A stretch of 64,000 nucleotides of DNA from Raillietiella orientalis (taxonomy: Eukaryota). Numbering within the stretch: the stretch's first letter is position 1; the number at the start of each line of letters is the position of its first letter. A program made the translations under genes and the position numbers. The stretch is taken from the NCBI GenBank assembly GCA_036172245.1, contig JAYWIR010000120.1, forward strand, positions 1 to 64,000, in the 5' to 3' direction. Below, one piece after another: positions 1 to 64,000 of the stretch. The notes under the pieces are model-generated. The model was not told the origin of the DNA. It saw nothing but the letters and a program-made list of their open reading frames with translations, and did not search any database.

Positions 1-533
1 GTGTTGGGCTTTCTCCACATCGCGAAAACGCTTGCGTATTTTTCCAGTTCAGCGCGGATGGCGTTCTCATCCATCCACACTGTTGTCCCTGTTAGGTGGA
101 CCACAATGGAGTGGTCCACCGTGTGTGGGAGTAAATTCCTGCCCTCAAATTGTACGGGCGTGCAGAGCATCTTGTGGGTAAGAGCTGCATCCTTGCAGAT
201 GAGCTCCGCCAACTGCCCTCCTCTCCGTATAGAGAGGCAAAGAATTTCATGGTCGGCAATGCCCATCTTTTTGATGGCATTGCCGAACTTTCGCGCCCTT
301 AACGGGGAATATAAATTGCCTACCTTGTACAGGAGGGCCGGATTGTAGCCCTCCTGGATGTAGGATTGGATTTCGGCGGCGACATCGGGCGTTTCCGCCG
401 CTGCCACCGCGCTCCAGGCCCTCGCCGTAGTGGCGGGTTCAGAAGAAGTGGTGGGGCGTGATCCCACCTCCTTTGGCTTGGGAGACGCGGTCTTCCCGCC
501 TCCCTCACCTGAAACTGCGGCGTTCACAGGCAT
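1..533 (-). CDS. LINE ORF1 (gag-like nucleic-acid-binding protein), partial, open to the window edge
   Basis: ATG at 533; MPVNAAVSG...AWSAVAAA...GYNPALLYKVGNLY...ELICKDA...DHSIVVHLTG...WRKPNT with no stop; matches ORF1 copies that carry CCHC knuckles downstream. Confidence 0.8.
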   Translation of the reverse strand, partial: MPVNAAVSGEGGGKTASPKPKEVGSRPTTSSEPATTARAWSAVAAAETPDVAAEIQSYIQEGYNPALLYKVGNLYSPLRARKFGNAIKKMGIADHEILCLSIRRGGQLAELICKDAALTHKMLCTPVQFEGRNLLPHTVDHSIVVHLTGTTVWMDENAIRAELEKYASVFAMWRKPN

Positions 534-618
534 TTCTGCCTGTCAACGGCCGCGAAACACACACGAAACACCAGGAAAGAAAAACTCCTTATCCACGGAG
601 CGCACAAAAATTGCGTCC
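1..618 (-). mobile_element. 5' end of L1/Tx1-like LINE (family H): 5'UTR and ORF1 N-terminal part, running off the window
   Basis: 5' motif GGACGCAATTTTTGTGCGCTCC (rc of 597-618); open minus-strand frame homologous to the other ORF1 copies in the window. Confidence 0.85.
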
Positions 619-3335
619 GCCGTGCACCGCGTAGTCAAGCGCTACTACTCCTCGTTGTACGCGGAGGAGCCCACGAAACGCAGTCTCTCCGAGCTGCTTT
701 TTCCGACGGGCAACCCTGCTATCGAGGAGGAGGAACGCGCCAGACTGGATTGGCCCTTCACGGCGGAAGAAGTATCTTTTGCCATAGCGGGCCTGAAGAG
801 GAGTAAGGCGCCTGGGGAGGATGGCCTGCCCGCGGAGTTGTTTTAGTGCTTCGCGGCGGAGCTCGTCTTCCTGGTGCTAAGACTTTCCTCGCTGATGCGT
901 GAGACGGGAGATGTTCCCGCTTCTTTCCGCTCAGCAAAGGTGCGGCTCCTGCCGAAAGGCGGTGATTTGCGCCACCTCAGCAACTGGCGTCCGATCACAT
1001 TGGTGAATTCGGACGTCAAGTTGTTCTCCAAGCTATGGGTGGCGCGCCTGGGGAGAATCGCGGAGTCCTTGGTAAGTCCGGAGCAGACGTATGCTGTTCC
1101 GGGGCGGACCATGGACGCGAATCTCTTTTTCGCGCGAACATGGTTCGAGTTGCAGCAGCGCGTGGCGCAGCAGAGCCAGGCAGCCGAAATCGCCTCTGCC
1201 AAAGGAAAGCGGCGGTGTTCAAGGCACGATGGAACGCCGGGAGCCTTAGCGGTCGCCGTCGATCTCTGCAAAGCGTTCGACAGCGTAAACCAGGACCTCA
1301 TTCTGGAGCTTCTGGGACGCCTAGGCCTCCCGACGCACCTCATCTCCTACTTGCGCTCCTGGTGGCGCCGCGCGTTATGCTGTATCTCTTTCAACGGGCG
1401 TCACGTGTACGGTGTTCCCATACGGCGGGGTATCAGGCAGGGAGAGAGCTTAAGCCCCCTGCTTTTCAGCATCTTCTTTGAGTTGGTGCTGAGGGCGTAC
1501 AGGCTGACGCTGGCCAACCTGCGGAGCTCCTGCCCGGGAACACCGGCCGTGGCCGTTTATGCTGACGACCTTCTCCTGCTGCTGTTCATGTCCACCCCGG
1601 CGTCCAGGCTCGAGGACTTCTTCAAGCTCATTCGTCGGGGAGCGGGCCTGAGCGTGAACAGGACGAAATCAACCGTTGTACCGGTTGGCTCTACGTGGGA
1701 TGGGCAGTCCGACTGGATCCGCCTGGGGATCCCCACGGGCAGGTGCTTGAAGTACCTCGGCGTTCCCTTGGGCGCCTTCTGTCCAGTAGAAGCGTGGTCG
1801 GACTGCCTTCACAAGGCCGAGACTGCCCTGGGCCCGTTCCAAGGCGGCAGGTTTCTGCTGTCGGAACGGGCCTCCGATTGGAACATTTTCGTTGTTCCCC
1901 TTCTCCGTCTTTTCTTTTTTGTTTGTCCTTCTCTCTTCTCGGCTAAGCGCCGCGCGCAACGCCCGTTGCTTAACACCCTGTGGGGACCGGCGAGGTCCAG
2001 GATACGCCTGAAGGATTTGGCGGCTCCTCGGCGGGATGCAGGATTGGGCTTCCTGACGCTGGAGCGGATCGGACTGCTAGTGCAGTTCCGCATGCTGGCA
2101 CTTTGTGCGCAGCTCTGGACTACTCCCTGGTGTGCTATAGCGCGGCTGCTGCTGCGGCGCAGCACGGGTGGCGACGGACTACGTTCGTTGCATCTGCGCA
2201 CGGAGCGCGCCCAGTGAGGATTCGGCTTCCCTTTGAAGCAGCTCGCCACGCTTCTGGGAAAGCATGAGTGGATCTCCTGCCGGCCGACGAATTTTAACGC
2301 CTGGAGGCAGGAAGCCTTATCGTCCTGGGCAGCGCAACCGGATGTGTCCCGTTTGGAACTCCGTTGCGTGAAACTTTCCCCATACTGTCCAGTGGGGGAG
2401 GTGCTAAGAGACCAGGACCAGTGGACACGCATAGCCGCTACGCCACTCGCCGAAGCACTGTGTGCATTGATGGTGGGAAATGACTGTGACCTGCCGGCGA
2501 GGTGGGAGATCACTTGCGAAATCGCAGGCGGAACCCGACTGCTGGGCGGCTGGCGGACTTGCGAAGTGGCAGACGCTGCCACACCTCGCATTCTTGCAAA
2601 GGGGCTACTTCGGTGGAGTGAGCTCCTCGGGGTGCCCACCGATGAACTTGTGGTCGCTTCTGCGTGTTTGGACGCGACTCTCTTCCCCCTTCGGTGAAAG
2701 CAGGAAGCTTTTCTGCTGGTGCATTGGGGTTTGTACTGCAACCTGCGGGCGCACCTGATTTCCGGGGGAGTTGCGTCCCCGAACTGTGCCAAATGCGGAG
2801 CGGTGGAATCGCTTCCGCATTTGCTGTTTGAGTGCGGTGCCCTCCAGGATCTGTGGCGGCGTCTCTCTTCAGCTCTCCTGCACCCTGGACACACCGCACT
2901 GGATTCGATGCGCCGCTTCTACACGCGTGGCGGTCTTTCTCTTGGAGCGGTCGTCGCAATCATCTGCTGCGTCCGCGCCATTGTCAGGGCCCGCCACGTA
3001 TTGCAGATGCGAGCAGTCTCAACATCGGTCCCCGACACCGCAGCCTGCAACCTGCAAATGGCAGCGGGGTGGCCACATCGTGGAGCAGAAGTTAGGACGG
3101 AGATCGGTGGCATTCACCGCCGGTTCTGAGAATAGAAACGGTTAGAATGCGTACCCCTCTCCCCGCGCTTGCACCCAATTTATTTATTTATTGTCCCACC
3201 CCCTCCCGTTCCGAACTCTCAGTGTGCCCGGACTGCGTTCCGGGAAATCTACTCCCCATTTTCTGTTCCCCTTGCCTGGGAACACAGTTCTCAGTTGATA
3301 TTATAGTGAACGTCCCGGCGCAACCGTGTAATAAA
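619..3335 (+). mobile_element. L1/Tx1-like LINE family A: ORF2 (linker, RT, C-terminal zinc finger) plus 3'UTR; decayed
   Basis: KAPGEDGLPAE, NWRPITLVNSDVK, DLCKAFDSV, GIRQGESLSPLLF, YADD (1558-1569), KYLGV, GLG, CAKCGAVESLPHLLFEC; in-frame stops at 844, 2215, 2695; stop at 3129; 3' hairpins. Confidence 0.93.
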
Positions 3336-4528
3336 CGACAATGCTGCATTCTTTAATTTGCTCGCTTGCCTGCTGTGTTTTCTGGCGGTACGCGTGCTTT
3401 TTCTCCATCCTCCTCTCCTTCTTTAATTTTATGGCCGTAGCCACCTGCCACCCAGGCTCCTGGCTTGTTCCCTTGACTTTTTCTGCGTTGCTCGCCGAAG
3501 TCTCGGGTTCGGCCTGGGCCTTGGGCGCGTGTGGCACAGCCTTCGCGGCAGCCTTCGCCGCCTGCTTTTTCTCCTGCAGCCGGGCGCGTTTTTTAAGGTT
3601 GCTCTTGGAAACCACCCGAAATGCTGCCTTAGGGGACACCTCCCTCGTGTGACCCATTGTGCCGCATACTTGACACTGCACGTTGTGACATCACTTTTTG
3701 AGGTGGCTCGACGTATTGCAGAAGCCTCAGTATTTCGGTTTCCCCACATACCAGAGGTCGACGGTTTCGCCTTCGGCCACCAGTTGTGGGGAAGAGTGCA
3801 GCCCTCCCGAACGGTCACGCGCGCAGCAGTGAGACCGTGTTGCAACCCCGTGTAGTCCTCGAGAGGACTTACTTTCGTCCACTGCTCGTGGACCGTTCCG
3901 AACTGTTCCAAAGCGGCGCGAACCTGTTCTTTGCGCATTCGCGCGGTTACGCCTAACAGGTGGACCACCATGCTGCGGTCCGCCGTAATAGGGAGGAGCC
4001 TGCGCGTCCCCATCACCACGGGGGTTTTAAGCAGTCGTTGGACCAGCTCTGCTTGTTTGCAGATGACCTCAACGTACTGACCCCCACCGCGGATGGTCAT
4101 AGCGCTGAGCTCCTCGTCTTTCACATCGAGAGCGCGCATGCCCTTCGAGAAGGCGCGCGCGCTCTCTAAAGAATATAAATTGCCCAACTTGTATAACAAT
4201 GAGGGGTTGTACCCCTCCTCTACATAGGCCGACAATTCCGCCGCGGCTGCAGTCGATGGCGCCGACACAACGGCGCTCCACGCCCGCGCTGCAGCGGGGA
4301 CCGATCCTGTGAGGGCGGATGCCCCCACCTCCATCGCCTCTGGAACGACGTTGCCGCCTCCCCCTCGCTCTCCATCGCCTCTGGGGGTGGCGTTGCCGCT
4401 GCGCCCTGGCCATCCCTGGGGTTCGCGTCAGGCATTGCTGCCTGATCGACCACCGAACCACACGACGCTTGCACCGGGGGAGACTTCCTGGCACGAGGAG
4501 CACCAAGAAAACACGACCACCCTGGAGC
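3336..4528 (-). mobile_element. LINE 5' end plus ORF1 (family J), frameshifted, truncated by the family A 3' end
   Basis: 5' motif GGTCGTGTTTTCTTGGTGCTCC (rc 4497-4518); GYNPSLLYKLGNLY, DRSMVVHLLG, degenerate knuckle CQVCGTMGHTREVSP, Lys-rich tail. Confidence 0.85.
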
Positions 4529-6427
4529 GCGCAAGGCGTTGGACTACGTGGACTAGGATCTCCTGCTGGAGCTCCTGGAACGCATGGGCTTCCCTTTCTC
4601 CCTACTGACCTACATGCGCTCTTGCTGGCGCAGCGCGCTAATCAATATCTTTTTCAGAGGTCAAATGGCATAAGGCGTGCCTGTACGGTGGGGCATGAGG
4701 TAGGGCGACTGTCTGAGTCCCATGGTCTTTAGCACCTACTATGAGTTGGTGTTGAGAGCGTACAGGGTGACTTTGGCCCCCTTGCCGAGCTCGTGCCCCG
4801 GCACGCCAGCCGTAGCGGCGCATGGCGACGATCTTCTGCTCCTCTTACCTATGTCCACCCCGGCGAAGGCGGTCCGAGATTTCTTCGACCTGCTTAGCCA
4901 CGGGACCGGAATTACGGTGAACAGGGCGAAGTCGTCGGTCGTGCCAGTTGGTGCAGCGTGGTCTGGGCAGCAGGACTGGGTCCGTCTGGTGATCCCCACG
5001 GTGATGTGCATCAAGAACCTCGGTGTGCCGTTGGGGGACTTCTCCCCTGCGGAAGCGTGGTCCAGCTGCCTCCAAAAAGTTGAGACGGCGATCGGCCCGT
5101 TCCTGGAAGGCAAGTTTCACTTGCCGGAACGGGCCGCGGTTTGGAACGCCTTTGCGACCCCCATCCTCCGCACCTTTGTTTTTTGTTTGCCCCGCCCCCG
5201 TGGAATCAAAAAAGCGGACGAAGGACCTCCTCCGCATAGCTCTTTGGTACAAGGGGAGGCCCCGAGTCCCTTTGGAGGACTTGTGCGCTCCGCGTCGGGA
5301 CGGCGGTCTCAGCATGCCGACGCTGGAGCGCGTGGAAATCCAGCTACGATGGCAAGCCCTCGCCATCGCAGCGAAGATGTGGAGCACCGCTTGGTGCATT
5401 CCGGCCCGCCTCCTGGCCAGGCGTGTGTCCCGCTGCGAAGGACTCGCATCGTTTCTTCTGTGCCCTGGCCGGAAGCTTCGACAATGCGGTATACTGCTCG
5501 GCCGCATGGCAACCCTGGCAAAGGAGAACGACTGGATGGTTTGTGGCCCTGCCAACTCCTTTGCTTGCCTGGAAGAGACTGCTGGCACCTGGGCCAAGCA
5601 GAACCAGAGGTGCGATGACCGGATGAACTGCCTGCGAGTCGGCTTTTACGCCCGCCGAACTCTTTGTGAAATTCTTGAATTTCCACCGAGTTGAACGTGG
5701 GCGGAAGGCACACCCCTTGTTACGGCGATGCCCTTCCTCCATAGGGCGCTTTACGAAAGCCGGAAGCCAAGGTGGCAAGTCTGCTGCCGTATCGTAGGCA
5801 GAGAGAAGATGATGAGCGGCTGGACCATGGGAGAGTTCACAGATGCAACGACCCCTAGTCTCCAGCCGCGTGGATCAAGAAGATGGGGCGATCTGCTCGG
5901 CATTCGATTGGATGACCTGAAGTGGCCCCCGGTTCTACTTGGATCTAGGATTCTTTCCCTGAAGTGGCAAGAATCGGCGCTTCTGTGGCTGTATTGTGGT
6001 CTACCCTGCAACGCGCGCCGTTTCCACTGGACGCGGGGAAGAGTAAATCCTGCGTGTGCCAGGTGTGGGGAGCGGGAGTCGCTCCCCCACCTCTTAGTTG
6101 AATGCCCTGCCGTCCAGATTCTTTGGGATCGTCTGAAAACGGCCCTCCGGATGCCAAATGGTGGCAATGTTGGATGTGTCTTCAGTTTTGTCTTCGTGCG
6201 GGACGCCCTCAGTCCAGCCGCAGCCCTGGCATCACTTTTCTGCATTCGTGGTATCGTGGCGGCCTGGAGTGATGCAGAAGATGAAGACTGCATTGTGAGG
6301 GACGTCATCGAGTATGCTTCTCGCTTCCTGCAGACAGCTTCCCAATGGCCGAATCTAGGAAAACTGAAAATGGAACTAGAAGGCATCCTGCAAAGGATGG
6401 GCGCTCTCAGCAGTTTTCTGTGATCTC
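4529..6427 (+). mobile_element. LINE family B ORF2 3' half (RT to stop codon), frameshifted, 3'UTR missing
   Basis: Starts at RKALDYVD (KAFD motif); YADD mutated to HGDD; CARCGERESLPHLLVEC; closely similar to 54432-56330 on the minus strand. Confidence 0.92.
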
Positions 6428-7057
6428 GAGTACTCTGGCGGAGGTTAGAAGCAGCTCTCCTGCCAACGGGGGACACCGCCCGAGATGTGCTGCGACGGTT
6501 CTTTCAAACGCGAGGACTTTCGACAGCTGTGATGATTTCCAAAGTTGGTTGTATCCGCGCCATCGTCACGGTCCGAGACGTGCTGGAGAACACTGGTCAG
6601 CAATGTTGTGTCACTAGGAATGCAGCCGACTTCATCAGGGCGGCAGCTGGGTGACTACACTTGAGTGAAGACGCAACGGAGAAGCTAACTGGTATCCATC
6701 GCCGGATTCGCAACGGTTCCAAACGACGATCCCGGTGATCCACCTCCATTCCCTTTAAACTGTATTTTCGTTGTCGCGTCCTTCCTTGCATTTGCTTCGT
6801 AGTGCTTTGGTGCTTCCACTCTGTTTTTCCCGGTGAATGCGGAGCGTCACTAAAGTTCCCTGGTGCAATGCTCTCATTTTGACTTTTCTTTTTTTGTTGG
6901 TAGTCCGCTCCTTCCCCATTCGTTAAGGTCCTTCCGTTTTTCTGGTCTGCGTACCAGTTGTATATCTCAGTTGCTGGTTTTTTGTAGTCGTTGGCTGGAA
7001 ACAACTGTTTCCTGCTATTTTATATTAGTAAACCTCACGGCGTGACCAAGTAAGGAA
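6428..7057 (+). mobile_element. LINE 3' fragment (A-related subfamily): ORF2 C-terminus plus 3'UTR
   Basis: LWRRLEAALLPTGDTARDVLRRFF...CIRAIV...GIHRRI resembles the family A C-terminus; CTGCGT hairpin 6942-6957; AGTAAA plus degenerate terminal hairpin 7027-7057. Confidence 0.8.
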
Positions 7058-9704
7058 ATTTTAGCGTTTGCCTGAAACGAGATGGGTCGAATCACGAGCG
7101 TGAACTGGTCAACGAGGTGTGCATGGCGGTGCACACCTGTAATTTGTTGGCCAGTGAAGAGCACCTGTGCACTTGCGTGGGCAGGCGCGGAAGTTTACCG
7201 TCCGAGTTGTCCGACCATCGCCTGATCGTGCTCCAGATTCATCCGCGCGACAGGGCTCCCCCTCTTCAGCGTGGTGGTTGCCTGCGGACTGGCTGATGCT
7301 CTTGGACGTGGCGGAACAAATCCTCGCGTTGATACAAAGCTTGACGCTGCAGACACTTCTGGAATTGGACCGCTTCAAACGATCAGTCCAGGGGATCTGC
7401 GACCAGTTCCCTCTGCACCGCCCACCTGTGGGATTTGGGGACGAGGTACGCAAAGAAAGGTCGTATCTACGTGCACGACGTTACGCCGGGATCCCCGACA
7501 TTCGCAGGCTGGTGGAGTACAAAGTGGGAGCCGAGAGGCAAGCCTTGCAGTCCGGATCGGCTAGTTTTCTGGACGATTTGGGCCAGGAACATTGAGCACC
7601 CGTTCAGATATTTGGTCTGCTGAATCGTTCTTATTCCTCCCTGTACGCAAGAACGCCTCCCGAGAGGGATGTCTGACGACTCCTACTTTCAAAAGGCGTT
7701 CCAGCGATCGATGAGGAGGAGAGAAAGTCCTTTGACGAGCATTTGACGATGGGCGAGATCATCTCCGCCATCGGAAAGGTTGAGAGGCGCAAGCCTCCAG
7801 GGGAGAACGACCTGCCCGCGGAGTTTTATCGAACTTTCGCGGTTGAGCTTACCCCCCTGGTACAGCAACTCACCTTGCTGATACGCGAGACAGTTGACGT
7901 TCCCGCCTCGTTTCGTTTGGCAAAGGTGCGGCTCCTCCCTAAGGGAGGAGATCTGAGGAGCATAAACAACTGGCGTCCCATCAGAATAGTGAATGCGGAC
8001 GCCAGGTTGCTAGCAAAGGTTTGAACAGAGCGCTTGGGACGGGCTGCAAACGCATTCATCAGCCCTGAACAGACGTATGCTGTTCTCGGACTAAGCATGG
8101 GGGAGAACTGTTCCATGCTTCTACCTGGATAGAACTCCAACAAGAAAGGGGCTTGGTGCGCAGCGGGAATTCCGGAGCGTTCGCCAGCAAGGGGTCAGAT
8201 GGTCGGGTGCGGGAGGGAACCCTTTCGGTCGCAGTCGACTTGAGGAAAGCATTCGACAGCGTCGACGAGAATCTCCTGCTGGAGCTTTTGGAACGCTTTG
8301 GCTTACCGGCCTCATAATTGACATATCTGCGCTACAGCTGGCGCGACGCGCTAATCAATCTTGCTTTTAGCGGGCAGACCGGTGGCGGTCTAGGGATGCG
8401 GCTAGTACTTCATCTTCAGTTCGGGATGTTGGCCGTTGTGCAGAAGTTGTGGTGCACCTTCTGGTGCGTCCCTGAACGTCTCCTCATCAAAAAACCCACC
8501 GGGAAGATGGGACTCACGTCCTTTCTTTCACTTCATCGCTCCTGCGTCAACCGTTGTGGGCTCCAGCTGCGGAGGGTGGCTGCATTGTTTCGAAAAAATC
8601 AAGGATGGATCACGTGTCGCCCCGCGAAAGGTAGTGCCTGGTTGCAGGAAACCGTTCGCACGGGGGCACAGAGCGGCATGCAACGCTACCAGCAGGAACG
8701 ACGGTTCCTGTTTGGGGGTTACAGAAGCTGCACGCTCCTAGAGATCCTGGAGGATCCGAAGAAGCAAGCGTGGTCAGGAAGAATCCCATCGCTGCTGCGC
8801 TGGACTCCCTAATGGAAGATCAGGACAGCGATGTTGCGGCGAAGTGGGAGGTTTTTGTCACTATCTCCGGGAAGGAGGAAAAGATAGAGTGGCAGACGGG
8901 CCAGTTAACAGACGCTGCGACTCAGAGTTCGCCTCCTCATGGACCTCTGCGATGGGGCGCGGTTTGTGTTCTCATTAAACATCTGAAGTGGCCTCCGATG
9001 GTTGTGAACTCCTCCACCCTTATTCAAAATGGCAGGATTCGGCAGTATTGTTGTAACACAGAAGATTCCCCTGCAACGCTCGCCAATACCATTTGACCTG
9101 CAAAGAGTTGAACCGAAATTGTGCTAGGTGTAGGGAACGGGATCTCTCCCATACGTACTTGTGGAATGTTTTGCCATCCAGTCTCTTTGGCTACGTGTTG
9201 CCGCGGTCATTGGAATCCTCTGTGGCAACCCCAGAGGCGCAGTTATATCCCCCTCCGTTTGCGACGGCCTTCGGCCAGCTGCATCGTTTGCAGCCATCTG
9301 CTGCTTTCGCGGGACCGTCGCTGCTTGGAGCAAGGCAACGGGAGGACCACGTGATAAGGGTGCCCTTCAATTCGGAGTCGAATTTATGAGGACAGCGACT
9401 GGATGGACCCATCTGGATTCACCATTTCAAGAGCAGCTTGCCGGCATCCTAGAAAGGATATAACTGCCGCACAGCAGACTGTGCGGCAGTTATATCCCCC
9501 CAGATCTTGTTTTTATATATTTTATTTTCGTTATATCTTTGTTTTGTCTCTGCCCCCTCTGCTGTCGTGGTGGACCGTACCGGACTGCGAACCGGTGACC
9601 CGGCAGACTTAATTGTTTGTTAGTGCGTGGCACGACCACCAGGTTGGCCACAGATTTTCGTTTTATTCGGAATAATAAACGCTCCGGCGCACCCGGGTGA
9701 GAAA
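7054..9704 (+). mobile_element. LINE family C ORF2 (from the EN GDFN region to the 3' end), with an internal deletion removing the RT core
   Basis: GNFSV...LVNEVC, PVGFGDEVR, KPPGENDLPAEFY, NWRPIRIVNAD, SPEQTYA; jumps from FSGQ to GGGLG at ~8375; CARCRER; AATAAA plus hairpin 9674-9704. Confidence 0.88.
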
Positions 9705-11065
9705 CTAGTTCGGGGATGGTGATCCCGAAACTCGCTTCCGGGATTACCAATCCCGAGCTCGCTTCACGGAAACCCGGAGGTGCTCACGAAGAAGTGCATC
9801 TGCCTTCAGATGGCTTAATATTTCGCCGGTATCCTCCAGTGGTTTAACATAGGCTCTATGCATGGTATAAGGAGCTCGAACTCAAACCTGTGATGGTCAG
9901 AAAATCCGGACGGCATGGGCCCTCTCTTTCTCACACGAGAGTGCAAGTTGTCATTGAGGAAGATGTGATCCGGCGATGTTTGCATCTCAGGCACTTTGAT
10001 CGTCAAGTTGGCGCGCACTGATGAGCACATCTCGATGGCCAGTGAGTGCTTCTTCAATCAGCTCCATCCGTCCGAAATTCGGTGGACGTTGAAGTCCCCT
10101 GCGACGAGCGGCGCCACTTGAGTGCCGGAGCTGCTGAGCCAGTAGCTCTGCACCTCGCCAAGGAAAGGTATTCTCTCTTCCAGGTAGAGAGAGGCACTCT
10201 GTGCTTGAATGTGACGAGATCGATGGACTTGGACCACTTGATGAGAAGTTGGCTCACGCTTTCGTGATCGTCGAAATGAACCCCATGCACCGTTTTAGCC
10301 AGTTTTCCTTTTGCGTTGAAAGCGCACGTGTGTGGGTCGCCGCACCGCTAAAGTAGCGTTGCTCCAGCCAGCATCTCAGTTCCGCAGCCTGCTCGTCGGA
10401 GATTACGTGAGTCTCCTGCAGGAGCGCGAGGTCGAAGAGGTGAGGTCGTTCGCAACCAAACGCCTATTCTCGTCGTTCTGCAGTCCATTCACGTTCCAAC
10501 ACGCGACAGACAGGCGACGAGAGGACGCGATTCCTCGCATAACTGCTGGAAAGGCGACGAAGTCGCTTTCTCCGGCGAGCGTACGGTAAGCAGCACGACT
10601 GGTTGGAGATCGCGATCGCCACCGTCCGCCAAAGTGCTGCAAGGAGACGAGTGTTCCCAGGAATGGCTGTTTCGTGCTCTGGGGAGTGCTCGAGCGCTTG
10701 AACGTCATGCGTACAGTTCCCGTTTGCGCGGGGAATTGCTTTTGCGCGTCGCGCACCCGCTCTCGCACGCGTGTTGCGCTTCTCGGCTGTATGGTTTGAT
10801 TGCATTTCGAAATTGCCTACTGTCGAGTTTTAGACTGGCACTTTACCTCTCGCGTAAAATCTGCGGGGCCTGTAGGACTTTTTTTTGCTTTGCGTTTTGC
10901 GACTTCTGTGTTTAACACTTTGGCAGCGGCTTTTGCCATTGCAAACGGAACCTTTGCGTAAGTCTTTTTCAGGAAGCGCAGGTTTTTCGCCCTGCAGAGT
11001 GTGACGGATGGAGGTTGATACTCATTACCAGTGATATTCATGGGGCGACGTCTATGTTGCCCCCA
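9705..11065 (-). mobile_element. LINE family G: internally deleted ORF1 plus ORF2 endonuclease
   Basis: ORF2 start MRGIASSRRLSVACWNVNGL at 10540; LLQETH; PDHIF, FSDHH, HWRIP. Confidence 0.82.
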
Positions 11066-11785: not shown

Positions 11786-11787
11786 CC

Positions 11788-43179: not shown

Positions 43180-43288
43180 GGATGGGAACGGACGCCGCCG
43201 CCTCGCTCCCATTCTTGTTTACTTAGTCTTCGGAACTTTGAGTGCTGGCAGCAGCGAGTTCGAGAGTGCCGCACTAGTCGATGGTGGA
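43180..43288 (+). mobile_element. Possible 5' stub (5'UTR to ATG) of an antisense-inserted LINE
   Basis: GGACG...GCTCC at 43190-43209 (20-nt variant), UTR-like sequence resembling the family H 5'UTR (gagtgctggcagc), ATG at 43281. Confidence 0.45.
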
Positions 43289-53224: not shown

Positions 53225-53430
53225 CAGTTCGACGAGGAAGGTCGAGTTGGGCAACTTGTCCTCAAGTGGTCAGACTCTATCGACCTCGTGCTCACGAACG
53301 TATACGCGCCCTGCAGCAGCCACAGGCGCGGAGAAGGCACTGAGTTCTTTCAAGCCCTGCGGTGAGACTGGTTGGCAGAAGCAGGCGTGCAGCGGGCGCA
53401 CCTGATAGCGGGATACTTCAAGCGGGAGAC

Positions 53431-53505
53431 TTTTTTTTTGTTTGTTTGTTTGTTTGTTTGTTTGTTTGTTTGTTTGTTTTGTTTTGTTTTTTTTTTTTGT
53501 TTTTT
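53431..53505. repeat. (TTTG)n / T-rich microsatellite
   Basis: About 10 TTTG units followed by TTTTG and poly-T. Confidence 0.95.
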
Positions 53506-53783
53506 CTCACTTCCGCCCTATTAGACTCCGCAACATTTTAGGTGCTCTCTATTTGAATGCCCGTGAGTACGGAGCTTCACCAAAGACCCGTTACCCCTCC
53601 CTCCAGATTTTTTTTTTTTTTTTTATGTGTTACCTCTCTACTCCCTCAGTGTTCTTGGAAGCGGTTTGTTAACCAGGCCTGTGTGCCGGTAACTTCTCTT
53701 TGCTCCTTGTCGTTTCTTTGGTTAAGTACATCGTCTTTGACCGGTTTATTCTCAATAAACGCCCCAGCGTGACCGGGTGAAAA
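53431..53783 (+). mobile_element. 3'UTR-only LINE insertion (~350 bp)
   Basis: T-rich tract, CTGTGT-loop hairpin (~53672-53690), AATAAACGCCCCAGCGTGACCGGGTGAAAA; ACTT(CAA) target sequence on both sides. Confidence 0.8.
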
Positions 53784-54207
53784 ACTTCAACATCCGCCTG
53801 CTGTCGGAAGCGCCCGACATACGAGCACAATTGGTAAACGAGTTGTTTGCGTCGTTGCACGCGCGCAACTTCTTGGCCGATAAAGCCGACGTGACACGCA
53901 GAATCGACCACGTGTTCCTCGACAACCACCTGTGCAAGCGGGTGGGGACTCGAGGAGCACTTGCGTCGGAGCTGTCCGATCACACTTGGCTAGTGCTCAA
54001 CATCCATCCGCGCAACAGAGGTCCAGCCCCCGAAGAGTGGCGCCTGCCGGGAGACTGGTTGCGACTCGCAAGAGCGCGCGAAAATCTGCACGCATTCCTG
54101 CGTGGTTGCGAACTGCAGACTCTCGCTGACTGAGATAAAATCAAACGCTCAGTCCGAGAGTTCTGCGACCAGTTTCCCCTCCATCAACTTCCTCCAGGTT
54201 TCGGCAA

Positions 54208-57200
54208 TGCCACCAGGATACGCCGGGACGTTTATTAAAAACATTTCAACAGTTAATACAGAACCTGGTACAAAGCCCCACTGACGGCCACGCAATAAAG
54301 GAACTGCTGGGACACCGGGACGCAGCCCGGTGTGAATCTCCTCGGCAGTGGAGGGGGATGGAAGAGAAAACAAAAATTAAATAAAAAGAGAAAAACAAAC
54401 AACAAAAGGAGTTTGGAGGGCCGGGAAAGGATCACAGAAAACTGCTGGGAGGGCCCATCCTTTGCAGGAAGCCTTCTAGTTCCATTTTCAATTTTCCTAG
54501 ATGGGGCCATCGGGTAGCTCTCTGCAAAAAGCGAGAAGCATACTCGATGACGTCCTATACGATGCAGTCTTCATCTTCGGCATCACTCCAGGCCGCCACG
54601 ATACCACGAATGCAGCAAAGTGCTGCCAGGGCTGCGGCTGGACTGAGGGCGTCCCGCACGAAGACAAGAGTGTAAACACATCCAACGTTGCCACCATCCG
54701 GTATCCTAAGGGCCGTTTTAAGACGATCCCACAGAATTCGAACGGCAGGGCATTCAACTAAGAGGTGGGGGAGCGACTCCCGCTCCCCACACCTGGCACA
54801 CGCAGAATTTACTCTTCCCCGCGTCCAGTGGAAGCGGCGCGCGATGCAGGGTAGACCCCAATGCATCCACAAAAGCGCCGATTCTTGCCAATTCAGAAGA
54901 AGAATCCTGGATACAAGTAGAACCGGGTGCCACTTCAGGTCATCCAATCGAATGCCGAGCAGCTCGCCCCATCTTCTTAATCGACGTGGCTGGTGACTAG
55001 GGGTCGTTGCATCTGTCAACTCTCCTATGGTCCAACCGTTCGTCATGTTCTCTCTGCCTGCGATACGGCAGCAGACTTGCCACCTTGGCTTCCGGCTTTT
55101 GTAAAGCGCCCTTTGGAGGAAGGGCATCGCCGTAAAAAGAAGTGTGCCTTCCGCCCACGTGCAACTCGGTGTAAATTCAAGAATTTCACGTAGAGTTCGG
55201 CGGGCGTAAAAGACGACTCGCAGGCAGTTCCTCCGTTCTTCGCACCTCTGGTTCTGCTTGGCCCAGGTGCCAGCAGTATATTCCAGCCAAGCGGAGGAGT
55301 TGGCGAGCCCACAAACCACCCAGTCGTCCTCCTTTGCCAGGGTTGCCATGCGGCCGAGCAGTAGACAGCATCTTCGAATCTTCCGGCCAGGGCACAGAAG
55401 ACACGATGCGAGTCCTTCGCAGCGGGACACAAGCCTGGCCAGAAGGCGGGCCGGAATGCACCAAGCGGTGCTCCATATCTTTGCTGCGATGGCGAGGGTT
55501 TGCCATCGTAGCTGGATTTCCACGCGCTCCAGCGTCAGCATGCTGAGACCGCCGTCCCGACGCGGAGCGCACAAGTCCTCCAAAGGGACTCGGGGCCTCC
55601 CCTTGTTCCAAAGGGCTATGCGGAGGAGGTCCTTCGTGCGCTCTTTAGATTCCACGGGGACGGGGCAAACAAAAAGCAAGGGGCGAAGGATGAAGGCCGG
55701 GAAGGCGTTCCAAACCGCGGCCCGTTCTAGGAAGTAAAACTTGCCTTCCAGGAACGGGCCGATCGCCGTCTCGACTTTTTGGAGGCAGCTGGACCACGCT
55801 TTTGCACGGGGAGAAGTTTCCCAACGGCACACCAAGGTACTTGATACACCTTACCGTGGGGATCCCCAGACGGACCCAGTCCTGTTACCCTGCCCACGCC
55901 GCTCCAACTGGCACCACCGACGACTTCGCCCTGTTAACCTGTAATCCGGCCCCACGGCTAAGCAGGTCGAAAAAATCCCCGACCGCCTTCGCTGGTGTGG
56001 ACATAGGTAAGAGGAGCAGAAGATCGTCGGCATATGCCGCTACGGCTGGCGTGCTGGGGCACGAGCTCGGCAAGGGGGCCAAAGTCACCCTGTACGCTCT
56101 CAGCACCAACTCAGCGTAGGTGCTAAAGAGCAGGGGGCTGAGGCTGTCTCCCTGCCTTATGCCCGCCGTACCCGCACGCCATACACTTTTTGACCACTGA
56201 CAGTAATCGAGATTATCGCGTTCCTCCAGCAAGAGCGCAGGTAGGTAATCAAGGAGGGTAGGAAGCCCATGCGATCCAGGAGCTCCAAGAGGAGTTCCTG
56301 ATCAACACAGTAGAATGCCTTATGGAGGTCGACTGCGATCGCTAAGGCCCCTTTCCCGCATAAGGGTCCCTACCCTGTCCCACTGGCGGCCCCAAAGTAG
56401 GGTTGCAAATTTTCCCTTTCCTTTCTTTCTTACTCCGCTGCGCGTGCATCCATGTGTTCGCGAAGAAGAGGTTGTCCTTCATACTTCGCCCGGGAACAGC
56501 GTAAGTCTGCTCCGGGCTAATTATGGAATTGGACACCTGCCCCAATTGCGACGCCCACAGCCCGGCAATCAACTTGGCGTCCGTGTTCACGATCGTGATC
56601 GGACGCCAGTTGCAAAGTTTCCTGAGGTCTCCTCCCTTCGGGAGGAGCCTCACCCTGGCTGACTGAAACGAGGCGGGAACATCGCCTTCGTCTCGGATTC
56701 GCCTTGTCAACTCGAGCACCAGGGGGGCCAGCTCTTCCGCGAAACTCTGAAAGAACTCCGCGAGCAAGCAGTCCTTCCCTGGCGCCTTACGCCTCTTGAG
56801 CCTTTTGATAGCAGCGAGAATTTCACCGGTCGTGAAAGGCTCATCGAGGCTTTCTCTCTCCTCCTCCCCTATCGCCACGGAACCACTCATGAGCAATCGC
56901 CGCGATGCGTCTTGTTCGGGTGGTGTTTTGGCGTAAAGGGAGGAATAAAAACACCGCACGAGATTCCGTACCGCAGACGGAGACGAACGTTCCCGGCCCA
57001 GGTCATCCAGCAAGCTGGCCGACCCGGATTGCCAGGCTTGGCGTTCGGCCCCGGCGCGGTACTCGGCCAGGCGACGGACATTAGGGGTTCTCTCGTACCT
57101 ACGAGCCTGTAAATAGGCCCGATGGTTGCGAGCACCCTCGCCGAATCCGGGGGGCAGGCGATCCAGGGGGAACTGCTCACAGAACTCGCGGACGGATTCC

Positions 57201-59873
57201 TTAAAAAGGTCCCAGTCCTGGAGATTCCGGAGCGTGACACCTCTCAGGTATTCGCGAAGGTATTCCTTCGCACCTGAGAGTCGCGTCCAGTCCCCCGGCA
57301 GACGCCAATTCCTGGATGGCGGTCCCTTGTCGCGCGGGCGCATCTCGAATAATAACCGGGAATGGTCCGACAGCGTCGATCCAAGTGTCCCTCGTTTTCC
57401 GACCCGTGTGCACAGGTCTTCGTCGAAGAAGACGTGGTCCACGCTGCTGACCATCCCACTTATTTCTGTCAACCAGTTGCGCGCGCGCATGGTGGCGCAC
57501 AACTCGTTGATCGCGTTCCCCTGTGCTCCGGGCTGATCTGAGAGCAGACGGACGTTGAAATCCCCTGCTATCAGATGCGCCTTTCGCACGTCCGCGTCCA
57601 CCAGCCATTCGCGCTTCAAGGTTTCCAGTAACGCGTTGCGCTGCTGGTATCCCTGTTTACCGCTAGGAGCGTACACATTGGTGACGATGAGGTCGATCGA
57701 CTCGGACCATCTGAGAATCAGTTGGCCGATCCGTCCGTCGTCCCCAAAGCGCACGCCCTTCACGGCCGCGTTAATGGCTGGCTTTAGGAAGAACGCGACC
57801 TCACAAGTGTTGCGGGCGCCGCATCGCTAGTACAACCGCCCTCCCGCGATCGTTTCGATCTCCTGGGCGTCTTTTGCGGTGATCACGTGGATCTCTTGCA
57901 AAAGCACCAGGTCGAAATCTCGCAAGGTGGCGGCTGTATCTCGTCTGTTTCCGTCGTCGCGCAGCCCGTTAACATTCCAACTGGCCGCGCAGATCCGACG
58001 GCGACAGGCGAGTCCAGGTGTTATTCCTGGGAACCTGGGGGTGGTGCTCCCGCCACCTTTTGGGGCGGGTCGCTGGACGGGGTTGGCGTCTTGCCCACCA
58101 ACTCCCCATCCTTCTTTCGTGCCGACGTCTCCGGCTGCCCGTGCGAAGGGGGTGTTGTTCGTACCTGTTGGCCCACATCCATTGGTGCGGGTGGTTCAGG
58201 TTCGGCGGTTTCAGAGGGCATTGCTGACCCCTGGTTACCCTCCTCCATTGGAGTCGCCTCCTCGTCGGCTTCCGCACGTGGCTGATGCCCGACTTGGGCT
58301 CCCACGCTCCCATCCACTGGTTCCTCCACCATTGCATCCCCCTCGCGCGGAGGCGGATTGTACCTTCGGGGTTTCTGGGATTTTCGCCCCGCTTTGCTTG
58401 GTGGTGCTTCCGCAGAGGGGGATGCACTTCCGGCCTACCGGTCCGACTCACCTGCGGGGGCCACTTTAGCCGCTGCCGGCCTACGCAACCCCTTTCGCGA
58501 AGGGTTCTCGCGTTCGGCAAGCGTTGCCGCAAGCTCCTCGGCGGCCTTCTCGAAGGCTGCGTCCTTGGTTTCGGCAATTTGGTCGTCCGGCTGACCCTCT
58601 TCGCAAGCAGGGGGTGGGTTTTCGCGCGCATTCGTCGCGGCGGGAAAATCGATCGAAGCCGTATCGCCTCCGGTGGTGTCGGCGGGAACGTCAATGCGCT
58701 CCAGCGTAACCGTGCATTCTCGGAGAGTTTTTACGCGCGACACGGATTGAGCTTTTGTTCCGGCCGCCGCCTTCTCTCCTTTCTTCGGGACATGCTTGTC
58801 CTTTTTCTCTTTTTTGGCTTTGACTAGCTGCCAGCCCTGTTCTCCCTCTGCGGTTTCCGGAAGATTTTTCTCCGATGCCGCGCTTGGAGCTTGGGTTATT
58901 AGAAGCTTTTCTCGGCCAGTTTCACGGGTTTCCAATTTTTCTTTCCCCGCGCGTTTCCCTTGCGCCTTTTAGGCGGCCGAGGAAATTGGGGTGGGGCGTT
59001 TAAGGCACACGCGACGGACGTGTCCTTTCTCCCCACACAAGTAGCATACGATGTTTGGACACCTGTTTCGGATGTGTCCGACCGCATCGCAGTAGCCGCA
59101 ATACCGTGGCTTGCCCGCATATCAGAAGTCTACCGGTTCTCCCGCGACCTCAAGTTTGTGGGGTAGCTTCGCTTCGTCTTTTGGGGTTACGCGTGCCGCG
59201 GCGAGGCCCCCGAAGTGGCGTCCGTAGCCCTCAAAGATTGTGGGCTTCGGCCACAGCGCGTGTACGTCCACGTACTTACTTAATTCTGCTTTTACGGCAG
59301 TGCGCGTCATGCGCTTGGATATTCCTGTCAAGTGAACCACTACCGAGTGGTCCATTGACACAAAGAAGATCTTACGGCCGTCCATGATCAGCGGGGTATT
59401 CATAAGGCGATCGGCTAGGCTGATGCTCTTGCACACCAGCTCAACCCGCTGCGCCCCGCTGAGCACGCACAGACCTTCCAGATCTTCCACACGGACATTA
59501 GCATTTTGAAGCGCTCTGCTGAAAGAGCGCGCCGTGTTCCCTTCAAAAAAAGGGCCTACCTTGTATACAAGCGATGGCTTGTATTCAGAGGCCCGATAGG
59601 CGGCTTCCTCGGCCATGGCCTCTGCACTGGGGGCGGCGACCATTTCACTCCAAGTCTTCGCCGGCTGCGAAGACGTTCCAGGGACTCTTGCCCCCATAGC
59701 TGTAGGTCATGTGGTAGGACTTGCCTCCCTCACAACTACATCCATCGCGGTGTCCTCTGGCACGGCTGCCATCGGACACCGACGACCCACACTTTACACC
59801 TGACTACACTGAAAACTCCGGCTGCTTCCCAGACAAGCGCTGGCGGAGCGACCAAAAAACACGTCCACCCACA
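54208..59873 (-). mobile_element. Full-length (~5.67 kb) family B L1/Tx1-like LINE, decayed; ORF1 ~59772-58021, ORF2 ~58020-54432
   Basis: 5' motif (rc 59845-59866), ORF1 with two knuckles, EN (SWNVNGL, NVYAP, GDFN, DH, SDH), RT (YADD ~56025-56036), zinc finger, 3' hairpins; imperfect 14-bp TSD ccaggtttcggcaa / ccggctttcggcga. Confidence 0.95.
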
Positions 59874-60054
59874 CCGGCTTTCGGCGAAGGCGTGAGGAAC
59901 GACAGGAACTATCTCCAGGCCCGTCGTTTCTCTAACAAGCCCGACGTCCGTCGCCTGGCGGAGATCAAGGCTGCAGCGGAGAGGCAGGCCTGGCAATCCG
60001 GGTCTGCCTGCTTGCTGGACGAAGAAGGCCAGGAGCACTTATCTCCAGCGCAGG

Positions 60055-63000
60055 TTTTTCACCCGGGTATGCCGGGGCTTTTATTACTAAAATTTTGAAA
60101 TTACAAAATTTTGTAACAAAGTCTATGTTGTTAAAATTTTTCTTTTTACGACGTCAGAAGTTCAGTTCAGAAGTTCAGTAGCACTTGTCCTTACCGACCC
60201 GGAGGTCGATAAGGCCCTTCACTGTCGCCGGGACGGGAAAAATAAAACAAAACAAAAACAAAAAAAAGAAAAACGTCTGGAGGGCAAAGTTTTCTGGGGA
60301 GGGGGAGGGCGGGAGGGGATCACGGTGCGCCGTGAGCAGGCCTTTGCATCCGGTTTCGGATGCGAACAAGTGCTGGCAAATGTTTTTGAAGTCGGCGCCA
60401 ACGGCACGCTTTCTCCAAAGAGATCGCTGCCCAGTGGATGGCATTCCGGCTGGTCCTTCCTCTCCTAGACGCGGTCCACTTCTCCAGGATACCGCGTATG
60501 CAGCAAAGCACTGCTACGCTCCCGGAGGCTGGCAAGCCGTCTCGCGTCAGAAGGCGTCTGAATAGATTTTTCGGATCACCCTCCGGAATGTTGAGGATCG
60601 ACGAGAGTCTGTCCCACATTTCGTGGAGGGCAACACACTCCAGAATCAAGTGGGGGAAGGTCTCCCTTTCCCCGCACTCTGCACAACTAGCATCCACATT
60701 CCCCGATGTCCAGCGAGACAGGCGTGCTCTGCTTAAAAGTCCCCAGTGGAGCAGAAGCAACGCCGTCTCCTGCCACTGCAGGGGAAGGGTGCCGTTGTCC
60801 CATGACGCTGGGGGCCACTTAACCTCCTCCGGAGGTATACCGAGCAGCGCGCCCCAGCGTGAAAGTCCGTTCGGTGGGACACTCGGGGTACTAGCGTCCG
60901 CTAGTTCCCTCGGCGTCCACGCCTTCAGTGATTTCTTCCTGCCTCCGATGAGGCAGGACACTTCCCAAGATGCCTTTTGGTGGCTGTCCCGAACTTTCCT
61001 GAGGAAGGGCAGCACTGGGGCAAGGGGGGTGAAGGAAGCCCACAGAAGTTTCCGTGGGTTAGAAACGATCTCCTGGAGTGGCTGACCAGCGTGCCTCCCT
61101 CTGCGGAGGCAGGAGAAGTCCTCATCGCTGGTGCCATTGATCTTCGCCCATGCGGATACGGACTCCTGAAGCCAGGTAGTCCAGTCCGCTGGGATGCAGG
61201 AGATCCAAGGGTTGTCTCTCATCAGAGCAACCAAATCCCGCAGCTGATAACCACAATGGTTCTGGCTGCGTTCGTTGGCTACCAGGATTGAAGTCAATCC
61301 GACGCAGCCGGTGGCCCTGTGAGCAAGGAGTCTTGCTGGTGCACACCAGGGTGCTGTCCAAAACTTTGCCACAAGGGCAAGTTTTCTGAATTGGAGCTGT
61401 CGCTCCATGCGCTCCAACGTCTGGGGACCAAGTCCACCGTCCCTGCGTGGAGCGCACAAGTCTTTGAGCCGGAAGCGAGACCTCCGGTTGCCCCAGAGGG
61501 CTTTACGTATAAGGCCCCTAGTCCGTGTCCTAGTTTGGTAAGGTGTAGGGCACACAAAAAGTAGGAGGCAAAGGAGGGGGGCCGCGAAAGCGTTCCATAC
61601 CGTGGCCCGTTCCTGCAAGTGGTACTTGCCGTCCCGGAACGGGCCGATCGCCAGCTCCACCTTTTGTAGACGGTCGGACCAGGCTTCTGCAGAGCAGAAG
61701 TCCCCCAACGGAACGCCAAGGTACTTGATGTACCTGCCCGTGGGGATCCCCAAGCGGATCCAGTCCGACCGTCCGGCCCTCGTCGAGTCGGTGAAAAGCA
61801 ACGACGATTTCGTCCTGTTTACCTGGAGGCCTGTCCCACGGTATAGCAACTCGAAGAAATCCTTGAGCGCCGATGCCGGGGTGGACCCAGGAAGCAGGAG
61901 CAGAAGATCGTCGGCATAGGCCGACACGGCAGGCGTGCCGGGACACGAGGTCGGCAGGGTTGCCAAAGTCTCCCTGTATGCTCTCAGCACCAACTCAAAG
62001 TAGATGCTGAAGAGCAAGGGGCTGAGGCTGTCACCCTGCCGGATGCCACGACGAACCGGCACGCCGAACACGTGCCGGCCGCTGAAATTGATATTGATGA
62101 GCGCGAAGCGCCAGCAGGAGCGCAGGTAGGTCAGAAAGACGGCCGGAAATCCCAAGCGTTCCAGGAGCTCCAGAAGGAGCTCCTGGTCGACGCAGTCGAA
62201 AGCTTTACGCAAATCGACTGCGACCGCAAGGGCTCCAGGCACCGCATCTTCTTCCCGGCTTCCCTCCCTCCTATCAATAGAGAGTCCAGGACCTTCCCGA
62301 CGTAGCTGCGCCTCGCGTTGCTGCAACTGCCAGAATGTGCTGGCGAGGAACAGGTTGGCCTCCAAGGTATGTCTGGGAACAGCGTATGTCTGTTCCGGAC
62401 TGACCACGAAGTCCGCAATCCTTGCCAGGCGCTCAGCTCACAGTTTGGCGAGCAACTTTGCGTCCGCATTCACTACAGTGATGGGACGTCAGTTGCCAAC
62501 GTTGCGCAAGTCTCCTCCCTTAGGAAGGAGACGTACTCTAGCTGACCGGAACGAGTTGGGGACAACCCCACGTTCACGGATCAGCATACATAGTTTTAGC
62601 ACCAGGGGGGCCAGCTCTGCCGCGAAGTGTTGGTAGAATTCAGCTGGCAGGCCGTCTTCCCCTGGTGCTTTGTTTTTTCTCAATTTAGTGATGGCGGAGA
62701 TTATCTCCTCCATTGTGAACTCTTGGAGGAAGATGTTTATTTCTTCCTCCCTCAACGCGGGAGCACCCTCTGGCAGCAAACGCTGCGCAAAGGAGCGCTC
62801 TGGTGGTCTCAGCGCGTAAAGGGAGGAATAGAAATTCCGCAGAATGCGGCAAACCTGCTCTGAAGATGAGTGCTCCTGGCCTTCTTCGTCCAGCAAGCAG
62901 GCAGACCCGGATTGCCAGGCCTGCCTCTCCGCTCCAGCCTTGATTTGCGCCAGGCGACGGACGTCGGGCTTGTTGGAGAAACGACGGGCCTGGAGATAGT

Positions 63001-64000
63001 TCCTGTCGTTCCTCACGCCTTTGCCGAAACCTGGAGGAAGTTGATGGAGGGGAAACTGGTCGCAGAACTCTCGGACTGAGCGTTTTATTTTGTCCCAGTC
63101 AGCGAGAGTCTGCAGTTCGCAACTACGCAGGAATGCGCGCAGATGTTCGCGCGCTCCTGCGAGTCGCAACCAGTCCCCCGGCAGGCGCCACGCTTCGGAG
63201 GGTGGACCTCTGTCGCGCGGATGAATGTTGATCACTAGCCGAGGGTGATCGGACAGCTCCGACGCAATTGCTCCTCGAGTCCCCATCCGCGTACACAAGT
63301 GGTTATCGAGGAACACGTGGTCGATTCTGCTTCTCGCCCCGGCTTCATCTGCCAACAAGTTGCGTGTGTGCATAGCCGCACACAACTCGTTGACCAATTG
63401 TGCTCGTATGTCGGGCGCTTCCGACAGCATGCGGACGTTGAAGTTTCCCGCTATCAGATGCGCCCGCCGCACGCCTGCTTCGACCAGCCAGTCTCGCCGC
63501 AGGGCTTCGAAGAACGCAGTGCGTTCTGCGCGCCTGTGGCTGGTGCAGGGCGCGTACAGATTCGTGACTACGAGGTCGATCGATTTTGACCACTTGAGGA
63601 CAAGTTGTCCGACTCGACCTTCCTCGTTGAACTGTGCACTGCGCACCGCATTGGCGACGTCCGGCTTCAGCAGGAAGGCCACTCCGCGGGAGTGGTCTCC
63701 TCCACCACGCCAAAGTAGCCTCCCCCCTGTGAGCCTCTCGATTTCCTGGACGTCATCTGCTCTGAGGGCATGCACCTCTTGGGGAAGTGCCAGGTCGAAT
63801 GGTCGCAGGGTGTCGGCCACGCTACGCCTCTTGCTTTCGCTACGCAGCTCGTTGACATTCCAACAGGCTATACGCAGCTGCCGGCAAGAGGCGATTCCAC
63901 GCATCATACTAATGATGGTGGTGGCGTGTGTATTGCCGCCTCCTGTTCGGGAGGCGGCTGGTCGTTGTCCATCTGCGGTGGTGGCGTTTCGGCAACGACC
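60055..64000 (-). mobile_element. Young family E LINE: ORF1 end, whole ORF2 and 3'UTR; continues beyond the window
   Basis: Terminal AATAAAAGCCCCGGCATACCCGGGTGAAAAA; ORF2 colinear without frameshift. Confidence 0.95.
60320..63907 (-). pseudogene. LINE ORF2 (APE endonuclease, RT, zinc finger), ~1195 codons, one premature stop
   Basis: ORFs 62489-63907 and 60320-62407 share a frame; only GN*RPI (W to stop) interrupts; WNVN, QE, NLYAP, GNFN, RIDH, SDH, DLRKAFD, RQGDSLSP, YADD, KYLG, CAECGERETFPHLILEC. Confidence 0.93.

Follow-up and report, generated by a model that had tools for sequence, protein, structure and literature searches.

Known target-specific long interspersed nuclear elements (LINEs) insert into ribosomal DNA (rDNA), genes for small nuclear RNA (snRNA), microsatellites or telomeres, and some into one of a few DNA or long terminal repeat (LTR) transposons. 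Two described groups come closest to the locus analysed here, a nest of LINE copies in positions 1-64,000 of the forward strand of contig JAYWIR010000120.1 of Raillietiella orientalis (assembly GCA_036172245.1); this whole 64-kb stretch is called the window below. Zepp of Chlorella and Coccomyxa and ZeppL-1 of Chlamydomonas and relatives are L1 LINEs which, according to PMC8226300, are nearly confined to clusters built by insertion into existing copies. Their arrays consist mainly of tandem 3' ends of a single family and are centromeric, as described in PMC8226300, bioRxiv 10.1101/2025.03.28.645958 and PMC11005252. Members of the Tx1 clade insert into DNA transposons, LTR retrotransposons, snRNA genes or microsatellites; PMC4494074 places Tx1 in the piggyBac element Tx1D, Tx1-Mar in Mariner-N4_AMi, Tx1-8_Crp and Tx1-4_AMi in LTR retrotransposons, and Tx1-9_AMi in Harbinger.

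The R. orientalis locus behaves like Zepp and Tx1 both, and we describe it as a Zepp/Tx1-like, target-selective LINE nest. We consider it probable that LINE families landed here at fixed positions in the coding stretches of their relatives, their own family included. Directly seen in the window are nesting, element termini, target-site duplications (TSDs) and recurrence of insertion positions; in two cases, moreover, one position is used by inserts that are related. As in Zepp and ZeppL, copies lie inside copies in LINE-only clusters (16 of the 17 recognisable termini conform), and the clusters are GC-rich, gene-poor islands. Unlike those arrays, the nest is not a tandem series of 5'-truncated copies of one family: several diverged families are present, many 5' ends are full length (eight carry the 5' motif), antisense junctions prevail (12 of 16), full-length insertions in antisense are frequent, and landing positions at coding motifs recur. 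With the target-specific Tx1-clade set compared here, which also includes Keno, Kibi and Koshi, it shares apurinic/apyrimidinic endonuclease (APE)-type LINEs that choose one sequence in another repeat, sister families having different targets (PMC4494074). It differs in what is targeted, namely coding motifs of sibling LINEs and of the own family; the likeness is one of targeting behaviour. Codon- or nucleotide-precise insertion at a conserved multicopy target also recalls R1 and R2, but here Rfam found no RNA gene in the window, and the second open reading frame (ORF2) is nearest to L1 ORF2p among solved structures. A full-text literature search found no description of LINE families using conserved ORF2 codons of each other as landing sites.

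LINE fragments were mapped by tblastn with ORF2 of copy I3 (60320-64000, minus) and ORF1 and ORF2 of copy I2 (54208-59878, minus), and again with a profile made from the ORF2 fragments of the window itself. The two mappings agreed: fragments of one broad lineage occupy ~1-11.9 kb and ~38.6-64 kb, on both strands. The GC content is 53-60% in the two parts 1-12 kb and 42-64 kb, against 39-56% in the intervening DNA. Pfam analysis of stop-to-stop ORFs from the GC-rich parts detected Exo_endo_phos (E = 1.6e-8), RVT_1 (E down to 2e-22), zf-RVT and one zf-CCHC. The copies have an ORF1 with CCHC and an ORF2 that encodes an APE endonuclease, a reverse transcriptase (RT) and a zf-RVT domain; the order within ORF2, with the endonuclease N-terminal to the RT, is that of the L1/Tx1 superfamily. 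The closest solved structures to ORF2 were human L1 ORF2p chains (E = 1.5e-21). The best relatives in protein databases reached at most 32% identity, atlas matches were generic RVT_1/zf-RVT clusters, and families within the nest share ~30-65% ORF2 amino acid identity. There is no intact ORF2 in the window; even I3, the best copy, contains two stops in frame. An Rfam gathering scan of the entire window gave 0 matches and the junction flanks are LINE coding sequence, so that insertion in an RNA gene, the mark of LINEs targeting rDNA or snRNA genes, is not seen in the window. A metagenome scan with the ORF2 alignment gave 264 pattern matches, 0 of them confirmed, and one with the 3'-tail pattern gave 0 matches.

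The copies of the left block (1-11.9 kb) are as follows (UTR, untranslated region).
1-618, minus strand: E_a, 5' UTR and first part of ORF1, 5' end at 618 with the GGACGCAATTTTT motif; antisense in E_b at ORF2 codon ~382, extending beyond the left edge of the window.
619-3330, plus strand: E_b, ORF2 codon 382 to the 3' end, tail ...CCCGGCGCAACCGTGTA, then ATAAAC; host of E_a, itself antisense within E_c ORF1.
3331-4529, minus strand: E_c, 5' UTR and ORF1, interrupted by E_b at the RECSIVVY codons; its 5' end (4529) adjoins the KAFD codons of E_d.
4530-6427, plus strand: E_d, ORF2 codon 598 (R-K-A-L-D) to the stop codon, 89.7% identical to I2, own 3' UTR missing.
6428-7053, plus strand: E_d', C-terminal end of ORF2 with the 3' UTR, from a different family that is related to I1; the 3' end of E_d' adjoins E_e codon 185, in sense.
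7054-9699, plus strand: E_e, ORF2 codon 185 to the 3' tail (9674-9699), codons ~650-855 deleted near 8401; antisense in E_f.
9700-10600, minus strand: E_f, degenerate endonuclease region, codons 13 to ~343, outermost host of the block.
11383-11790, plus strand: E_g, degenerate ORF2 C-terminal fragment at the edge of the block.
Nesting here reaches six levels (E_f > E_e > E_d'/E_d > E_c > E_b > E_a), the right-hand half alone of the hosts being visible in the window. At 6427/6428, the I2-family ORF2 stops 2 bases past its stop codon and is followed by the ORF2 C terminus and 3' UTR of the other family, a join suggestive of a template switch or of a recombinant element.

The right block (38.6-64 kb) contains the following copies.
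40290-41077, minus strand: K1, codons 1041 to the end; its 3' end (~40.3 kb) could not be defined.
41105-43180, minus strand: K2, codons 384-1082, cut at codon ~384.
43181-44430, minus strand: N, 5' UTR and ORF1, 5' end at 44430, sense inside U.
44431-45676, minus strand: U, 5' UTR and ORF1 with two CCHC knuckles, 5' end at 45676; antisense at P codon ~383.
45677-46654, plus strand: P, codons 383-393 (32 nt, VIRILRNFYS) joined to codon ~981 and onward as far as the 3' tail (46638-46654); inserted into Qe in sense at codon ~909.
46655-47825, plus strand: Qe, ORF2 codon 909 to the 3' end (...GCCGGTTG + AAA); antisense at the KAFD codons of R.
47826-48648, minus strand: R, ORF2 codons ~329-602, truncated at both ends by the insertions J and Qe.
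48649-49669, plus strand: J, 5' end (AGGACGTGTTTTTT), short ORF1, and ORF2 to codon 107; antisense in R, host of G2.
49670-51294, minus strand: G2, codon 751 to the 3' tail.
~51295-51660, plus strand: T, ORF1 fragment.
~51660-53223, minus strand: G1, 5' UTR and ORF1, 5' end at 53223.
53224-53421, 53784-54207 and 59879-60057, plus strand: H_A, an I3-family host, codons 123-383, split by I1, I2 and I3.
53422-53783, plus strand: I1, 5'-truncated piece of 3' UTR that includes a (TTTG)n tract; sense in H_A at codons 186-188 (G-Y-F-N), TSD ACTTCAA.
54208-59878, minus strand: I2, full-length (5.67 kb), with 5' UTR, ORF1, frameshifted ORF2 and 3' UTR; antisense in H_A at codons 325-327 (P-P-G-F-G), TSD TTTCGGC(G)AA.
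60058-64000, minus strand: I3, ORF2 (with the two in-frame stops) and 3' UTR, tail at 60060-60076; antisense at codon 383 of H_A, a host of its own family, extending past the right edge of the window.
I1 and I2 lie whole within one host and provide the two directly seen TSDs (7-10 bp). The H_A pieces are 88-95% identical to I3 and, aligned to it, overlap by 9 nt exactly at the I1 and I2 breaks. U and E_a are mutually closest relatives in the window (76% nucleotide and 62% amino acid identity). We rejected the pairing of J and H_A as halves of a single host split by the G copies, given that their endonuclease identities to I3 are 47% (J) and 78-88% (H_A). In P (45677-45712), codons 383-393 are followed by a same-strand jump to ~981, attributable either to an internal deletion of 1.8 kb or to a template jump. 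About 33 nt at 43181-43213, read on the plus strand, resemble a 5' end (M, GGACGCCGCCGCCTCGCTCC), an uncertain assignment. The (TTTG)n microsatellite in the I1 3' UTR fragment comprises ~18 copies (53433-53502), and T-rich tracts are present in the 3' UTRs of several families.

All 16 junctions listed in the sequence-only reading were found, at most 6 nt off, and with the orientations given there, 12 antisense and 4 sense.
618, antisense: E_a 5' end against E_b.
3336, antisense: E_b tail (ends 3330) against E_c.
4529, antisense: E_c 5' end against E_d.
9705, antisense: E_e tail (9699) against E_f.
43180, antisense: K2 against the possible 5' end.
45676, antisense: U 5' end against P.
47826, antisense: Qe tail against R.
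48649, antisense: J 5' end against R.
49665, antisense: G2 tail (49670) against J.
53224, antisense: G1 5' end against H_A.
54208/59873, antisense: I2 in H_A.
60055, antisense: I3 tail (60060) against H_A.
7057, sense: E_d' tail against E_e.
~44430, sense: N 5' end against U.
46655, sense: P tail against Qe.
53783, sense: I1 in H_A.
The offsets of ~6 nt arose because the hexamer A.AAAC after ...GGTG had been counted as tail. One host position was revised. The host at 45676 had been taken for a C-terminal region, and we ourselves at one stage extrapolated codon ~971 for 45677; reading of the flank replaced both with ORF2 codon ~383.

The junctions were placed on the codon numbering of I3 ORF2 and the nucleotides were read at each; the site-recurrence tests, like the orientation tests below, were restricted to the window. 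Ten of the 14 ORF2 events had a neighbour of the same orientation within 12 nt in aligned host coordinates, which was matched by 0 of 200,000 uniform simulations. When the doubtful K2 event was omitted, the count was 9 of 13 (P = 5e-6). Preference for one repeated target sequence, a feature of the Tx1 clade, is present on the evidence of the window alone.

The most used position lies at codon ~383, directly upstream of FYSSLY, with three clear events and one doubtful event, all antisense. H_A ends ...GCG CAG GTT T(TT) at 60057 and is followed by the I3 tail; E_b starts at 619 with GCC GTG CAC CGC..., the same codons as the H_A end. P starts with AGGTGAT at 45677, and the 32 nt past the U 5' end include GTG ATC CGA ATC TTG CGG AAC TTC TAC TCC (V-I-R-I-L-R-N-F-Y-S), matching I3's own site at 22 of 30 nt. 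The doubtful case is K2, which starts within 3-6 nt of the site (43180) beside 5'-end-like sequence. The related inserts E_a and U share this position, antisense, in different hosts. A second position is the RT motif D-L-(R/H)-K-A-F-D, with two antisense events: E_d starts CGC AAG GCG TTG GAC (4530) beside the E_c 5' end, and R ends CAT AAG GCG TCC GAT (47826) beside the Qe tail. Both are compatible with a single site and a duplication of ~12 nt. A third is the endonuclease motif G-(D/N/Y)-F-N at codons 185-188, where the tails of I1 and E_d', whose 3' UTRs are related, lie within ~4 nt of each other, both in sense. Hosts that have a site in common are only ~45-57% identical in amino acid sequence to I3 and the inserts differ; these are therefore independent events rather than copies of one junction. 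Other single events fall at codons 107, 123 and 909, and two are in or just after ORF1.

These data support the proposal that the lineage uses its relatives as its target, and sharpen it: ORF2 positions recur with codon precision, including the insertion of I3 in the own-family host H_A, all on window-only evidence. The added statement that relatives are thereby inactivated holds in the trivial sense that hosts are split.

The termini themselves are well defined. Eight 5' ends carry the motif GGACG(T/C)..TTTTT..GCTCC after a variable leader of 0-16 nt; written as GGACGTGTTTTT..GCTCC, the motif has seven clear copies. The 3' ends have a common box, AATAAACG.CCCGGCG.A.CC.GGTG, and lack poly(A). 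In a pattern search, the box consensus AATAAACGcCCCGGCGyAyCCgGGTG had 8 matches against 0.55 expected, and 0 of 100 shuffles reached 8. A hairpin in the box was unsupported (consensus energy -0.7 kcal/mol, 3 pairs). Past ...GGTG there are 0-4 added bases, mainly A, and then host sequence, whose first six letters contain A.AAAC or AAAAC at 6 of 10 3' junctions. Within most targets ..AAAC is found in insert orientation, in the contexts CAAAC|CTG (codon 383), CGAAAC (codon 326), ATAAAC (E_b and G2), AGAAAC (E_e) and GGAAAC (codon 185).

This short motif is the basis of a different explanation, a regional pile-up: LINEs with an L1-like taste for short A-rich nicks would accumulate in a tolerated or chromatin-marked, centromere-like region, nesting would be a by-product of density, and hot spots would arise where conserved codons chance to supply the motif. 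We regard such a pile-up as rather unlikely. It would account for the A-rich opening of those six 3' junctions, and it has a precedent in Zepp/ZeppL clusters, known centromeric L1 nests (PMC8226300). On the other hand, the clustering of positions far exceeds the uniform null, related inserts have positions in common, and the motif is absent from the nick at the codon-383 junctions in E_b (GCCGTGC) and P (AGGTGAT). Furthermore, A.AAAC is denser in the non-LINE middle of the window than in the LINE blocks (3.9 versus 2.1-2.9 per kb), yet the middle contains a single recognisable terminus, compared with 16 events in the LINE blocks. The short A-rich motif alone is insufficient to explain the landing pattern, which we read as a common A-rich nick preference combined with family-specific choice of position.

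Several observations weigh against a target-selective nest. The A-rich hexamer can be assigned to tail or target, leaving junction positions ambiguous by up to 6 nt. The nick bases at codon 383 vary by host (CAGGTTT, GCCGTGC, AGGTGAT), and recognition is therefore not simply of the nick sequence. The single events at codons 325-327 (I2), 329 (J) and ~343 (E_e) are at neighbouring but distinct spots; we had at one stage treated them as one site near codon 325, which was then divided into three. E_b and G2 have similar 3' ends (72.5% alike over 80 nt) and different targets, ORF1 and ORF2 codon 107, with only ATAAAC in common, which the pile-up would predict. The sample is small, with 14 of the 16 events having just one side inside the window. 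In the window, selection against insertions elsewhere or targeting at the chromatin level is inseparable from sequence targeting. To these are added the isolated tail and the terminus-free joins described below.

Orientation had been put forward as a property of the lineage, said to insert mostly antisense. The 12:4 excess gives a two-sided binomial p = 0.077 (ORF2 alone, 11:3, p = 0.057), and since orientation is constant at each recurrent site the events are non-independent, leaving ~8 antisense and 3 sense sites. A lineage-wide bias is not established by these numbers, and the antisense excess is suggestive only. Strict A.AAAC occurs in ORF2 6 times in sense and 20 times in antisense, which by itself predicts ~77% antisense, near the observed 11 of 14 and in keeping with a pile-up. 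The looser motifs AAAC and AAAAC give only 54-59%; strand composition as the complete cause of the bias holds for the strict motif only and was rejected in that form. The same excess underlies the idea of a source of small RNAs, comparable to a PIWI-interacting RNA cluster, in which host selection would have favoured the array and its antisense bias and antisense small RNAs would silence the families. LINE sequence on both strands throughout the blocks and the 12:4 ratio fit such a source. We nevertheless think it very unlikely: the bias is weak and tied to a few fixed sites, and nothing in the sequence requires host selection.

The LINE community had been described as extending across 1-64000. 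We found that 11.9-38.6 kb (~42% of the window) is not LINE, with no DNA similarity of this middle to the LINE blocks found. Among 183 ORFs of the middle scanned in two partly overlapping sets (62 + 121), the Pfam matches above the curated cut-off were pieces of Peptidase_M14 and one RT fragment. The zinc carboxypeptidase Peptidase_M14 is represented by three pieces in three frames (11956-12371, plus strand), with the domain incomplete, directly after the degenerate ORF2 C terminus at 11383-11790; the remnant is probably part of a pseudogene bordering the nest. The middle also contains an inverted repeat (13396-21932 and 24365-32900) with 8.5-kb arms, 99.77% identity and a 2.4-kb spacer. Its GC content is below that of the LINE blocks, it has a strong, mirror-imaged AT skew, and it is without Pfam domains. 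A true palindrome, an unknown element and a fold-back created in assembly are all conceivable. Two LINE-derived features lie in or beside the middle.
34135-34162, minus strand: isolated LINE 3' tail (AACAAACGCCGCGGCGCACCCAAGGGTG); AAAAC comes next, then DNA with no similarity to LINEs.
38580-39496, minus strand: O, divergent or degenerate RT fragment (RVT_1, E = 2.4e-7).
The tail at 34135-34162 is one of the points against a target-selective nest, and its AAAAC flank in non-LINE DNA is what a pile-up predicts. Its presence there demonstrates that the lineage is able to integrate outside its relatives. The statement that every junction lies inside the same lineage accordingly stands for 16 of the 17 recognisable termini and fails for this one. 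Fragment O is located in a lower-GC zone between the non-LINE middle and the right nest and may stem from an earlier layer, either of this LINE lineage or of a different one.

Five joins lack a terminus (6427, ~8401, ~41077-41105, ~51295 and ~51660) and have the appearance of deletions, template switches or rearrangements; at the K1/K2 join (~41090), ~40 codons are duplicated. Rearrangement thus also shapes the nest, a further point against reading it as the product of targeted insertion. These joins and the nearly identical inverted repeat are what one would expect if the structure were an artefact of assembly or recombination, through mis-joined repeat reads or ectopic recombination between dispersed copies. 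Such an origin is extremely improbable: 16 junctions coincide exactly with conserved element termini (5' or 3'), both complete insertions are flanked by TSDs, and the host resumes at the correct codon past the insert. In addition, contigs of a public DNA run, X1, in which 9% of sampled words of 50-60 kb are present, cover much of 49-63 kb at 90-99% likeness, mostly 90-95%. One X1 contig (depth ~3) joins 59890 to 54200 with two letters between them, so that the 5' end of one I2-like copy meets the 3' end of another, the joint spanning ~22 nt of target/TSD letters only. As a hint only, it suggests a tandem I2-like pair sharing a target site, in another strain or elsewhere, which would speak independently for target selectivity. 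PMC4494074 describes the same layout, with a TSD between tandem copies, for Tx1-Mar-mobilised elements.

If the nest is target-selective, as we favour, the two GC-rich blocks would represent a nest of at least two dozen copies of several related L1/Tx1-type LINE families. The copies would have entered each other by target-primed reverse transcription with 7-12-bp TSDs, building Russian-doll stacks. At least some families would land at one fixed spot, before FYSSLY (codon ~383), KAFD or G(D/N)FN. Since orientation is fixed per position, the mostly antisense arrangement would follow from the positions in use. Selectivity may come from the endonuclease, or from pairing of the nicked new target with the 3' end of the RNA, possibly one that reads through into the old target. 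A possible role for pairing between a read-through RNA 3' end and the target has been raised for other site-specific LINEs (PMC4494074). The A-rich core (..AAAC, in insert orientation) at most 3' junctions would suit either route. A more specific proposal is a guild of sibling LINE families, each homing to its own fixed codon motif in the others. The position would be inherited through the endonuclease or through read-through flanks, and the guild would maintain self-renewing LINE-only islands harmless to host genes; we consider the chances that this holds to be evenly balanced.

If true, the use by sibling LINE families of each other's conserved ORF2 codons, and of their own, would constitute a novel type of target and would explain the growth and confinement of LINE-only islands, which are possibly centromere-like. 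It would also provide a natural series of related endonuclease/RT proteins with differing short DNA targets, useful for the study of site choice by APE-type elements.

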